The translations under genes were made by a program, and so were the position numbers. Source: Dictyostelium discoideum (taxonomy: Eukaryota). From it: 64,000 nt of DNA. The notes beneath the pieces are model-generated. The model saw nothing but the letters and a program-made list of their open reading frames with translations, ran no database searches and was not told the DNA's origin. The stretch is from NCBI GenBank assembly GCA_000004695.1, contig CM000151.3, forward strand, positions 3,616,001-3,680,000, read 5' to 3'. Shown piece by piece: positions 44,427-48,424 of the stretch (its first letter is position 1; every line of letters starts with the position of its first letter).

Positions 44427-46818
44427 ATGGAGGATTATATTATATTAAGTAAATGTGGGCAGGGTACATATGGCAGTGTTTTTAAAGGAATACATAAGAT
44501 TACTCATTCGTTAGTTGCTTTAAAAAGGGTAACGGATATTGCTCAAGAAGATGGCGTAAGTTTTATATATATAACCTATATATATATTTATTTATTTATT
44601 AAAATATATTTATTAATTTTTTTCATTAACAAAAAAAATAAAATAAATATATATATAGGAACCAGTAGAGGTTAAATATCTAAATCAATTAAAAAATCTA
44701 TCAAATATAGTTAATTTAAGAGATCACTTTTATATAGATAAAAATAGTGTTTTAGTTTTGATTATGGAATTTATAGAGGGTGACCTTTGGAAGATTATGT
44801 CAAACCCTCAATGCACTTTATCACTTGGTCAAATTAAAAACTTTACAAAACAATTATTGGAAGGTGTAAAACAATGCCATGTTAATGGTATAATGCATAG
44901 AGATATCAAACGTATGTTGTGAAATCTTTTTTTTTTTTTGTTAATTTTATTGTTATTATTTTAGTATATATTAACATTTTCATTTTTACTATTTATCAAT
45001 TATTGTTATTATTATTATTATTATTATTATTATTATTATTATTATTATTATTATTATTATTATTATTATTATTATTATTATTATTATTATTATTATTATT
45101 ATTATTATTATTATTATTATTATTATTATTATTATTATTATTATTATTATTTTTTAGCTGCAAATTTATTGATAACCACAAATGGTGTTTTAAAATTAAC
45201 AGATTTTGGATTATCAACATCATATTCAAAAAGAAGTGAAAAATTTTTATCAAGTAATGTTGTTTCATTATATTATAGACCACCAGAATTATTATTGGGG
45301 TCATGTATATATGGTCCAGAGATTGATATGTGGTCAGTTGGTTGTATATTAATGGAGATGATCAATAATTCTTATTTGTTTGCAGGTGCTGATGAAACTG
45401 CTCAATTAGATTTAATTTTTAAGTTATTTGGTTGTCCAACTGAAAAATCTTGGCCTGGTGTCTCATCATTACCAGGTTATAACGATTTATTTAATAAACA
45501 ACAACAACAACAACAAAATGAAAATAATTATAGCAAACAACATAATAACAATAACAATAATAATAATAATAATAATAATAATAATAATAATAATAATAAT
45601 AATAATAATAATAATAATAATAATAATAATAATAAATATAATAATATATCAACTTCATGTTTACAATCACCATCTTCTTCACCACCAATTGGTGGCTATG
45701 CTTCATCATTATCATCAGATTTTAATAGTAATGAATATAATGGTTATAATCAAACCTTTTCAAATGAAGATTGCTTGGCAATCTCTCAAAAAAAATTAAT
45801 AGATAAATTTCCACATCTTGTTTTATTGCCAAGCGTTTTGGATTTGGCATCCAAAATGTTGACATTAGATCCAAAGAAGAGAATAAATAGTTTAGAAGCA
45901 CTCGAGCACCCTTGGTTTAAATCATCTAATGATATGGATCAAATAGTACCTTTCTCAAAAGATTTTACCGATTTAGCAAATCGTTATATTGCTAGTACTC
46001 GACAATTACAACAACAACAACACCATCATCAACAACAACAACAACAACAACAACAACAACAACAACAACAACAACCTCATCAACAACAATTAATTCAAAG
46101 ACAACACCAAGAACAACAGCAACAACAATTAATTCAAAGACAACAAGAGCAATCAAAGCAACAATTAATTCAACACCATCAACAATCGGTTAACCAACAA
46201 CAATTGGCTCAACAACAACAATTGGCACAACATCAACAATATAACTCACAACAACACCAACAACACCACCAACAACAACACCAACAACACCAACAACACC
46301 AACAACAACAACAACAACAACAACAACAACAACAACAACAACAACAACAACAACAACAACAACAACAACAACAACAACAACAACAACAACAATATCATCA
46401 ACATCAGCAACAATATCATCAATATCAACAACAATACCATCAACCATCACAACAACAACAACAACAACAACAACAACAACAACAACAACAACAACAACAA
46501 CAACAACAACAACAACAACAACAACAACAACAACAACAACAACAACAACAACAACAACAACAACAACAACAACAACACCAATACCAACCCCCACAACAAT
46601 ACAACCATCAACCCCCACAACACCAACACCAACACCAACACCAACACCAACACCAACACCAACACCAACACCAACCACAACCACAACACCAACACCAACC
46701 ACAACCACAACCACAACCAACACCAACACCAACACCAACATCAACACCAACAACAACAACAATACCACCAACCATCACAACAACAATACAACCAACCATA
46801 TCAAAATCAAATGGATAA
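44427..46818 (+). CDS. CMGC-group, cyclin-dependent-kinase-like Ser/Thr protein kinase with a low-complexity tail of about 430 aa (poly-N, poly-Q, (HQ)n, (PQ)n, (PT)n); 3 exons, 44427..44555, 44659..44911 and 45158..46818
   Basis: GQGTYGSVFKG...VALKR (G-loop and VAIK), HRDIK|PANLL (catalytic loop split by an intron), DFGLS (DFG), SLYYRPPELLLG (APE-region, CDK-like), DMWSVGCIL, DETAQLDLIFKLFGCPTEKSWPG (CDK-type). Donors ggc|GTAAGT and aaac|GTATGT; acceptors tatatag|GAA and ttttag|CT. Confidence 0.7.
45004..45150. repeat. (ATT)n/(TTA)n microsatellite of about 49 units inside kinase intron 2
   Basis: Read directly. Confidence 0.9.
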
Positions 46819-48424
46819 CCACAATGTATATTTAAATAAACCACAAACACAGATTCAAACTCAACCTCCACACACACAATACCCCCAAAGCAATCAACAA
46901 CCTTCCAATCATGTGGAGTATTTAATACCATCACAACCACAATATGTTTATGTCGAACAAAATCAAAATTCATACTCAACACCAACAGATCATAATTTGT
47001 GTCATGCCATTAATTTGGACAGACAATTTGATCATATTAATAATAATAATAATAATAATAATAATAATAATAATAATAATAATAATAATAATAATAATAA
47101 TAATAATAATAATAATAATAATAATAATAATAAAAATAATAATAATAATTCTTATGACTACAGTTTTTCAGTGCACAGCAGTCAACAATACTCACGCCAT
47201 TATCCAAATTCTTGCAACAATGAACAAACAAAACCTAAAGATTACTATGATCATGCCTCTCGTTCACAACACGATTACCATGCTAATGGTAGTAATAATG
47301 GTAATAATAATAATAATAATAATAATAATAATAATAATAATAATAATAATAATAATAATAGTAATAATAACAATAATAATAATAATAATAATAATAATAA
47401 TAATTGTGATAGCAACTATAACAGCAATAATAATAATAGTAATAATATTAGTATTGCTAATATTAAATACCAACAAGACCAACACTACCAACATAGTGAT
47501 ACTTATACCTCTCATCAATACAATTCATTTAATGATAACAACAACAACAACAACAACAACAACAACAACAACAACAACAACAACAACATCAACAACGACA
47601 ACGACAACAATGGTTATAACCAATATGATGAATCTGAAGAAGATGAGGAGGAACAAGATGATTATGATGAGTTTGATATCCAAGATAGTGCAAGTAGTTA
47701 TAATGACAATTGCGGAGTTTTAAATTCAAACACCTACATTTATGATTATCAATCGCCACAACAACCTCTTTATTCAAATGAATATCAAAATAATAATCAT
47801 CAGCCCCAACAAACAGATAGTTATAATTATAATAATACTAATAACGATAATAATAGTTATAATATTAATAATAATAATAATAATAATAGTTATAATAATA
47901 ACAATAATTATAATAATAGTAATAACAATAATAATATTGGTAATATTGATAGTAATACTAATAATAATAATTATAATTATAACTATAGTAATAATGGTGA
48001 TGTTTATAATGGTTATAATAATAATAATAATAATAATAATAATAATAATAATAATAATAATAATAATAATAATAATAATAATAATAATAATAATAATAAT
48101 AATAATAATAATAATAATAATATGAATAATATGAATAATATGAATAATAATATTATTACTAGTAATCGTGAACAATTTTATAGTAACAACAATCATAACA
48201 ATATCAATCAATATCAATATCAATCACAACAACAACAAACCCAACAACAACAACAACAAACCCAACAACAACAACAACAAACCCAACAACAACAACAAAC
48301 CCAACAACAACAAACCCAACAACAACAACAATATCTTACTCAATATTATCAACAAGAATTATATTCACAATCCTACAAGTGCAGACCATACTATCAAAAC
48401 TCATTTGTTATTTCAAAATGTTAG
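46811..48424 (+). CDS. Asn/Gln-rich low-complexity ORF (537 aa) immediately abutting the kinase tail in the +1 frame. It is either a frameshifted or undetected-intron continuation of the kinase gene, or an independent prion-like N/Q protein.
   Basis: MDNHNVYLNKPQTQIQTQPPHTQYPQSNQQPSNH..., long (AAT)n runs and a C-terminal (TQQQQQ)n. Composition matches the preceding kinase tail. No recognisable domain. Confidence 0.3.
   Translation: MDNHNVYLNKPQTQIQTQPPHTQYPQSNQQPSNHVEYLIPSQPQYVYVEQNQNSYSTPTDHNLCHAINLDRQFDHINNNNNNNNNNNNNNNNNNNNNNNNNNNNNNNKNNNNNSYDYSFSVHSSQQYSRHYPNSCNNEQTKPKDYYDHASRSQHDYHANGSNNGNNNNNNNNNNNNNNNNNNNSNNNNNNNNNNNNNNCDSNYNSNNNNSNNISIANIKYQQDQHYQHSDTYTSHQYNSFNDNNNNNNNNNNNNNNNNNINNDNDNNGYNQYDESEEDEEEQDDYDEFDIQDSASSYNDNCGVLNSNTYIYDYQSPQQPLYSNEYQNNNHQPQQTDSYNYNNTNNDNNSYNINNNNNNNSYNNNNNYNNSNNNNNIGNIDSNTNNNNYNYNYSNNGDVYNGYNNNNNNNNNNNNNNNNNNNNNNNNNNNNNNNNNNNMNNMNNMNNNIITSNREQFYSNNNHNNINQYQYQSQQQQTQQQQQQTQQQQQQTQQQQQTQQQQTQQQQQYLTQYYQQELYSQSYKCRPYYQNSFVISKC

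Follow-up and report, generated by a model that had tools for sequence, protein, structure and literature searches.

A CDK-family kinase gene of Dictyostelium discoideum and a frame change within its Q/N-rich tail

In the 64,000-nt stretch of D. discoideum DNA analysed here (the window, to whose first letter all positions refer), a protein kinase gene of three exons occupies positions 44427-46818 and yields a spliced product of 680 aa. An in-frame TAG at 44400 lies upstream of its ATG, and the N-terminus agrees with those of the D. purpureum and Tieghemostelium lacteum orthologues. Both introns have an AT content of 0.93. From the end of the kinase frame a second long reading frame, displaced by one base, carries on for a further 1.6 kb, and an AT-rich flank separates this from the next gene (Table 1).

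Table 1. Features of the kinase locus, in positions of the window
Feature	Positions	Strand	Remarks
Kinase exon 1	44427..44555	+	Start ATG 44427; from splice sites and sequence
Intron 1	44556..44658	+	103 nt, GTAAGT...TAG, AT 0.93
Kinase exon 2	44659..44911	+	3' end within the HRDIK/P codon
Intron 2	44912..45157	+	246 nt, GTATGT...TTTTAG, nearly all made up of ~68 (TTA) units
Kinase exon 3, as the sequence stands	45158..46818	+	Remaining kinase domain to ~45918, then Q/H/P-rich tail; stop 46816-18
(AAT)26, encoding poly-N	45556..45633	+	Part of the ~90-aa low-complexity insert in the kinase C-lobe
Two longest (CAA) runs, encoding poly-Q	46300..46575	+	31 units at 46300-46392; 42 units at 46450-46575
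Kinase and +1 frames both open	46169..46818	+	Final +1-frame stop at 46166
Phase break	46711..46723	+	CCA CAA C/CAA CAC; extra C 46717 or, equivalently, CA missing; (CCACAA)n / (CACCAA)n junction
Tail continuation, +1 frame	46718..48424	+	Q/N/Y-rich; includes the 537-aa ORF from ATG 46811; stop 48422-24
3' flank	48425..48880		AT 0.83, T and A runs
Next gene downstream	48882-49427	-	Beyond the AT-rich 3' flank of the kinase locus

By its sequence the predicted protein is the already catalogued D. discoideum CDK-family kinase DDB0230050: over the 399 residues of that entry to which the comparison is limited, the spliced product is identical to it, and the poly-N tract has the same length in both. 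The VALK, HRDIKPAN and DFG motifs are present in the kinase and shared with DDB0230050. The Pfam Pkinase model matches residues 5-381 of the 680-aa product (3.5e-60). Among the matches listed, the relatives in the PDB are nearly all CDKs (CDK16, CDK5, Pho85, CDK2) with E about 1e-54 to 1e-50, and protein-database neighbours carry the names CDK12/13, CDKC-1, Pho85 and CDK20. With a catalytic domain, its motifs and CDKs as nearest relatives, the predicted product belongs in the CDK family of the CMGC group, and the CDK-like kinase that an earlier note had read from the letters of this DNA is borne out. DDB0230050 has been placed in the CMGC group, CDK family, Dictyostelium-specific subfamily CDK-DD1, and is located in the chromosome 2 duplication, where DDB0217416 is its duplicate copy (Goldberg et al. 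2006, PMC1420674). The subfamily assignment of the predicted protein is thus one that the authors of the classification made for this very protein.

Solved CDKs (CDK16, CDK5, Pho85, CDK2) can be aligned with the kinase domain from end to end. Compared with them, the D. discoideum kinase has a degenerate PSTAIRE-type helix (EPVEVKYLNQL), a Ser in place of the T-loop Thr (NVVSLYYRPPE) and two extra parts, namely the ~90-aa low-complexity insert and, if both frames are counted, a Q/N tail of ~830 aa. Its orthologue in T. lacteum (P0002, 648 aa) is 61% identical in the kinase domain, lacks the C-lobe insert and carries kinase and a ~340-aa tail in one intronless ORF, with no need of a frame shift. 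The D. purpureum orthologue (DICPUDRAFT_160441, partial) is 76% identical in the kinase domain; its contig stops within the kinase gene, so that the tail falls outside the comparison. A literature search with DDB_G0272797 and DDB_G0274007, which we take to be the relevant gene identifiers, gave no paper. The same kind of search with DDB_G0292550, which we guess may be another CDK-DD1 member, gave only papers applying that name to unrelated genes.

The kinase domain ends with EALEHPWFKSS at residue 384 of the 680-aa product, and the remaining 296 aa form a tail of poly-Q, (HQ)n, (PQ)n and (PT)n. In the list of open reading frames this end of the kinase appears as the first ORF, 45169..46818 (549 aa, stop 46816-18). 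The second, 46811..48424, begins with ATG, lies in the next (+1) frame, encodes 537 aa and shares its first 8 nt with the end of the kinase ORF, stop included. Besides the two long (CAA) runs of Table 1 there is a third pure run of 15 units at 46030-46074. These observations match what the earlier note had described: a simple-sequence tail of ~300 aa after EALEHPWFKSS that stops at 46818, a 537-aa ORF from 46811 in the next frame, and (CAA)n runs of about 40 units (the longest has 42). When the two parts are joined, the tail has 831 aa, with Q at 30.6% and N at 26.6% (together 57%), encoded by (CAA)n and (AAT)n. Long, disordered and enriched in Q and N, it would count by its composition as a prion-like Q/N-rich domain. 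Other prion-like low-complexity regions of Dictyostelium likewise arise from triplet microsatellites, and only length sets this tail apart from them. Tracts of this kind have been reported as over-represented in kinases (PMC3460934; PMC9234386).

The open stretch of the +1 frame starts at 46169, well before the ATG at 46811, and extends for 752 codons, 650 nt of which overlap the kinase frame. None of the triplets CAA, AAC and ACA is a stop, and this two-frame overlap is for that reason expected by itself; unlike the overlap, the openness of the +1 frame over 1.6 kb past the kinase stop is above chance. There the non-repeat codons include no stop among 378 in the +1 frame, against 6 and 94 stops in the other two. 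The codon-usage log-likelihood of the downstream region is positive in the +1 frame only, although within the Q/H/P/T repeats at 46000-46818 this score cannot pick a frame. The downstream +1 frame thus looks coding in character. Predicted tryptic peptides specific to it include DYYDHASR, HYPNSCNNEQTK and QFDHINNN.... The out-of-frame ending of the kinase frame past the break reads PTPTPTSTPTTTT..., with ...IQPTISK as a predicted peptide and ...TISKSNG as the C-terminus.

A codon listing and phase counts place the change of frame upstream of the ORF ends. All CAA codons are in phase 0 (the kinase frame) through 46716 and all are in phase 1 from 46718. Because the phase switches between these two positions, the break consists of a single surplus C, at 46717 (or of a lost CA); it falls within a CCA/CAA/CAC microsatellite and precedes the ORF ends by ~95 nt. 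A 30-nt motif encoding QQYHQPSQQQ occurs in phase 0 at 46429 and again at 46757 in the +1 frame. With C46717 deleted, or with CA added, the frame reads through to the end of the tail, and the resulting ORF has 1215 or 1216 aa. The discontinuity that the earlier note had set at 46811-46818 is therefore a real frame change given the wrong position, and the joined kinase is shorter than the ~1300 aa it had estimated.

Our preferred reading, to which we give a probability of about one half, is that the locus holds one CDK-family kinase gene with a product of ~1215 aa, the tail of which is split by an indel at the DNA level, most likely an error of the reference. The tail would originally have been a single ORF, giving the kinase a long, disordered, Q/N-rich C-terminus. 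A one-base insertion (or two-base deletion) at 46717, in the imperfect microsatellite, would have divided it: the shifted kinase frame would meet a stop 100 nt on, and the remainder of the tail would show as a separate +1 ORF. The unbroken sequence would read CAACAA or CAACCACAA at 46717. The likeliest origin of the indel would be a consensus error of the assembly in a low-complexity stretch, in which case the 1215-aa kinase would be the true product and the downstream part would be translated within it.

A single gene is favoured by the Q-coding phase, which passes directly from the kinase frame to the +1 frame at 46717, by the recurrence of the QQYHQPSQQQ motif in both frames, and by composition: the AT content of 46169-46810 is 0.61, whereas the flanks have 0.83-0.87 and the introns 0.93, which leaves no spacer of intergenic type. 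It is favoured as well by the T. lacteum orthologue, which keeps kinase and tail as a single ORF. That such errors occur in this genome is indicated by the kinome study, which corrected the genome sequence for four kinase genes and found that automated models hid frameshifts by bogus introns or truncation (PMC1420674), and by the resequencing of AX4 lines, which over about 11.5 Mb turned up 1916 differences from the reference common to these lines (PMC3466296). On the other side, the kinome authors checked every kinase gene model, and this gene bears none of their edited or corrected flags (PMC1420674). Nor would the out-of-frame ending PTPTPTSTPTTTT... be out of keeping with a protein of this organism: poly-T tracts are frequent in Dictyostelium proteins (PMC9234386).

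Sequence comparison gives no proof that the downstream tail belongs to the kinase, because no homologue was found and the similarity to T. lacteum is not significant. The concatenated non-repeat segments of the downstream ORF, in a word-indexed protein search of a collection without D. discoideum, returned nothing at E <= 10; an exhaustive HMMER search, run against 1.84 billion representatives, yielded 9 weak low-complexity matches and nothing more, and the ORF has no Pfam domain. BLASTP between the downstream tail and the T. lacteum tail gave E = 0.12. In shuffle tests of the tail against that of T. lacteum the observed local score was reached by 36 of 300 shuffles and the glocal score by 11 of 200. 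Scans of metagenome contigs for the junction DNA, by exact pattern and by peptide pattern, were both empty. Exact look-up found neither the 680-aa nor the 537-aa product in a collection that seemingly does not include D. discoideum.

A reference error seems to us likelier than a recent real mutation, but the latter is the most serious of the alternatives and we regard it as possible, if clearly less probable. The indel would then have arisen in the sequenced laboratory strain or come as an allele from its wild parent; the 680-aa kinase would truly end in ...TISKSNG, and the 1.6 kb downstream would be a fresh, untranslated remnant of the old tail. The anatomy of the sequence would be the same under a mutation as under an error. 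The kinase gene is duplicated on chromosome 2, so that selection could be relaxed by the second copy; the tail is fast-evolving and unconserved, so that its loss may be tolerated; and the D. discoideum genome contains 15 frameshifted kinase pseudogenes (PMC1420674). However, the +1 frame is intact over 569 codons from 46718, several (AAT)n runs included, and the mutation would therefore have to be very recent. With a measured rate of 2.9e-11 per site per generation (PMC3466296), a laboratory-era mutation in this single gene is improbable, although a natural polymorphism is possible. An unlikely alternative, by comparison, is that the 537-codon ORF is a separate gene for a prion-like N/Q-rich protein, starting at ATG 46811 and expressed from its own transcript begun within the region encoding the kinase tail. 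Its ATG, length and coding look are such that a gene finder would predict a gene. Yet the sequence upstream (AT 0.61 over 640 nt) is not the AT-rich kind of a promoter or intergenic region, the first 8 nt of the ORF lie within the end of the kinase ORF, the ~95 nt before the ATG already encode Q in the +1 frame and carry on from the kinase tail, and neither homologue nor domain was found. Between the two products left open by the earlier note, one kinase or an abutting N/Q protein, the continuous Q phase and the missing spacer thus favour one coding unit.

The remaining alternatives would join the frames at the level of RNA. That a spliceosomal intron, micro or large, connects them is the least credible of all. 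A stop-free join from GT 46189 to AG 46852 (664 nt) is formally possible, but at 38% GC this is the shortest frame-joining GT-AG pair that spares the kinase domain, and GT occurs in 46000-46900 only at 46189 and 46826. No GT/GC-AG pair that joins the frames is shorter than 250 nt; these pairs have an AT content of 0.60-0.70 and poor donors (GTTAAC, for example), against 103 and 246 nt and AT 0.93 in the real introns here; Dictyostelium introns follow the rule GT...AG, 60-250 nt, under 15% GC (PMC1420674). The unrecognised micro-intron suggested by the earlier note is excluded: 46408-46812 contains no G at all, and the shortest joining pairs measure at least 250 nt. Ribosomal frameshifting is likewise unlikely; that the sequence is right and that ribosomes slip +1 to make 680-aa and ~1215-aa isoforms strikes us as very improbable. 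The slip would take place at the stop (GGA-U-AAC), at CCC-CCA (46588 and 46612) or at any point of the 650-nt overlap; any +1 slip there would yield the fusion, because the +1 frame has no stop of its own in the 650 nt ahead of the kinase stop. The downstream frame is maintained open, and stimulation of frameshifting by codon repeats has been reported for human cells (PMC10954444). In having two overlapping ORFs, the second in +1, the locus resembles the programmed systems of antizyme, Ty1/Ty3 and Euplotes, but it lacks their heptamer, stimulator and conservation. Judged against shift motifs described in the literature, neither AAU GGA UAA C at the stop nor CCA CAA CCA ACA at the break is a known +1 heptamer. 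The RNA at the junction is unstructured (MFE -1.9 kcal/mol, z = 0.15) and has no Rfam match at E <= 1. The two-frame arrangement is not conserved, the T. lacteum orthologue being a single ORF, and no Dictyostelium case of frameshifting was found among the top-ranked papers of a literature search. Finally, the Q-coding phase switches 95 nt ahead of the stop, as a DNA indel predicts and a shift at the stop codon does not. The discontinuity for which the earlier note had proposed a +1 frameshift in a joined kinase thus looks to be a 1-nt indel of the DNA rather than a ribosomal event at 46811-18. Less probable still is a version in which the extra base is real and partial +1 slippage within the CAA-rich overlap has kept the 569-codon frame, giving 680-aa and ~1215-aa kinases with differing tails.

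Were such slippage to occur, it would be a case of codon-repeat-stimulated frameshifting in an organism with a repeat-filled proteome. Should the extra base be real and the downstream part be translated, long CAA repeats, open in three frames, would be a platform for frame switching, with a bearing on thousands of repeat-containing Dictyostelium genes and on polyglutamine-repeat frameshifting generally. The single kinase gene with an erroneous reference that we prefer is a matter of gene model and sequence quality rather than of new biology: if C46717 is an error, the catalogued kinase would have ~1215 aa rather than 680, and any N/Q-rich protein of 537 aa called separately would not be a gene.

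The CDK-family gene yields a spliced product of 680 aa with a protein kinase domain at residues 5-381 (Pfam Pkinase, 3.5e-60). Its best solved relatives are CDK16, CDK5, Pho85 and CDK2 (E about 1e-54), all of the best ones being cyclin-dependent kinases. The gene is already catalogued: residues 1-399 match entry DDB0230050 at 100% over the 399 residues compared, poly-N run length included (Table S2 of the kinome paper, Goldberg et al. 2006, PMC1420674). Its classification there is CMGC / CDK / CDK-DD1, the last being a CDK subfamily specific to Dictyostelium, and DDB0217416 is given as an identical ‘Ch. 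2 duplicate’; the match therefore places the window within the sequenced strain's chromosome 2 duplication. A low-complexity insert of ~90 aa (45480-45790), including N26 from (AAT)26 at 45556-45633, sits in the kinase C-lobe; the Tieghemostelium lacteum orthologue lacks this insert.

Coordinates of the kinase gene and other features of the window
Feature	Positions	Strand	Remarks
Kinase exons (three)	44427-44555, 44659-44911, 45158-46818		
Kinase introns	intron 2, 44912-45157		103 nt and 246 nt, AT 0.93; intron 2 microsatellite-filled, almost wholly ~68 (TTA) units
AP-3 beta adaptin gene	37893-40325	plus	neighbour of kinase gene
Transketolase gene	55700-57523	minus	neighbour of kinase gene
Flavin amine oxidase tandem paralogues	25808-27100, 28879-30171	minus	431 codons each; Pfam Amino_oxidase 1.6e-45 and 4.1e-47
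Paralogous ORFs	2473-5337, 10926-13841	minus	~960 codons; common architecture DUF7035 / DUF7034 / DUF7949 / ComC supersandwich
TerD-domain ORF	61212-62222		Pfam TerD, 1.2e-68; unusually GC-rich patch (AT 0.50-0.58), several frames open on both strands
Chain of four open frames	13879-14340, 14273-14707, 14704-15009, 15117-15572	minus	differing phases, overlapping or abutting

The window is ~77% A+T and rich in triplet repeats, its introns are short (GT..AG), and no tRNA gene was found across it. The four-frame chain at 13879-15572 could stem from introns or further frame breaks.

The earlier note described a kinase ORF that stops at 46818 after a Q/H/P/T-rich tail, a second, 537-codon ORF in the next (+1) frame at 46811-48424, and long (CAA) runs. 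All of these were recovered: the stop codon is at 46816-18, the second ORF opens with ATG, the tail extends 296 residues past EALEHPWFKSS and the pure runs have 42, 31 and 15 units. The overlap it reported is likewise real but larger in extent: it spans 650 nt, the +1 frame being open already from 46169. This is to be expected of repeats whose three readings, CAA, AAC and ACA, are all free of stops. The discontinuity, placed by that note at 46811-46818, in fact lies ~95 nt upstream, at 46717. It was located by listing codons in both frames together with the phase of every CAA; these triplets are all in the kinase frame up to 46714-16 and in the +1 frame from 46718 onward. At the break (...CCA CAA CCA CAA C|CAA CAC CAA CAC CAA...) a (CCACAA)n repeat meets a (CACCAA)n repeat. 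A 30-nt motif, CAACAATACCAyCAACCATCACAACAACAA, occurs at 46429 and again at 46757; it encodes QQYHQPSQQQ both times, first in the kinase frame and then in the +1 frame. One extra C at 46717, or equally a missing CA, accounts for the whole discontinuity: deleting C46717 produces a single ORF of 1215 aa and restoring CA one of 1216 aa, in place of the proposed fusion of about 1300 aa. The 680-aa product ends in PTPTPTSTPTTTTIPPTITTTIQPTISKSNG, which is what the Q/H-rich tail becomes in the wrong frame. The repaired tail of ~830 residues is 31% Q and 27% N. Long tracts of poly-Q from (CAA)n and of poly-N from (AAT)n characterise D. discoideum and are reported to be over-represented in kinases (PMC3460934, PMC9234386); a kinase with such a tail is long but ordinary for this organism.

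The downstream frame has coding character. Beyond 46819, stops occur at none of 378 non-repeat codons in the +1 frame, and at 6 and 94 in the other two. A codon-usage log-likelihood, trained on eight confident genes from the same window, is positive for the +1 frame only, in both halves of the region, and negative in every frame of the 3′ flank (48425-48880, AT 0.83); inside the Q/H/P/T repeats it does not separate frames. The downstream ORF had no detectable relative in two large protein searches (collections without D. discoideum) or in metagenomes, and its resemblance to the tail of the T. lacteum protein fell short of significance. The T. lacteum orthologue is 648 aa long (61% identity in the kinase domain). 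That of D. purpureum (76%) is on a contig that ends inside the gene, and its model is also truncated or interrupted: the predicted protein ends within the C-lobe insert (GL871714.1, 3900-3979), at a TAA that lies 22 nt short of the contig end and ahead of the last kinase subdomains.

An intron joining the frames, including the micro-intron suggested earlier, is excluded for practical purposes, since composition, length and donors are all unfit. When all GT/GC...AG pairs joining the frames without a stop were enumerated, each spanned at least 250 nt at AT 0.60-0.70 without a GTAAGT-type donor, and the shortest canonical pair sparing the kinase domain (46189-46852) spanned 664 nt. The stretch between 46408 and 46812 lacks G altogether, and GT occurs within 46000-46900 only at 46189 and 46826. 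The gene's actual introns differ sharply (see table), as does the rule for Dictyostelium, <15% GC and 60-250 nt (PMC1420674). That the downstream ORF is an independent gene is improbable: the 640 nt upstream of its ATG have the region's lowest AT (0.61, versus 0.83-0.87 in true flanks) and leave no spacer, the ORFs share 8 nt, and Q-coding in the +1 frame is under way 95 nt before the ATG. A +1 shift by the ribosome is very improbable. Neither stop nor break carries a recognised shift heptamer, as judged against published motifs; the RNA lacks structure (MFE -1.9 kcal/mol, z = 0.15) and matches no Rfam family; in the T. lacteum orthologue a single intronless ORF covers both kinase and tail; and if the ribosome shifted at the stop codon, the change of Q-coding phase 95 nt earlier would stay unexplained.

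The best reading of the discontinuity is an indel of one base at the DNA level, and we give a probability of about 0.5 to its being an error of the reference sequence. Counting for error, four kinase genes needed genome-sequence corrections by the kinome authors, who also describe how automated models masked frameshifts through truncation or bogus introns (PMC1420674), and resequenced AX4 lines have 1916 differences from the reference in common, about 11.5 Mb being covered (PMC3466296). A real allele is rather unlikely, though the gene has a second copy, the genome has frameshifted kinase pseudogenes, the kinome authors left DDB0230050 unflagged (PMC1420674) and the tail evolves fast. With the 1.7-kb downstream frame intact, any real mutation must be recent, and a laboratory-era origin is unlikely at the measured mutation rate of 2.9e-11 per site per generation (PMC3466296). 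The use of the finding is in gene-model correction; it would hold little further interest unless the extra base is real and the downstream frame translated.
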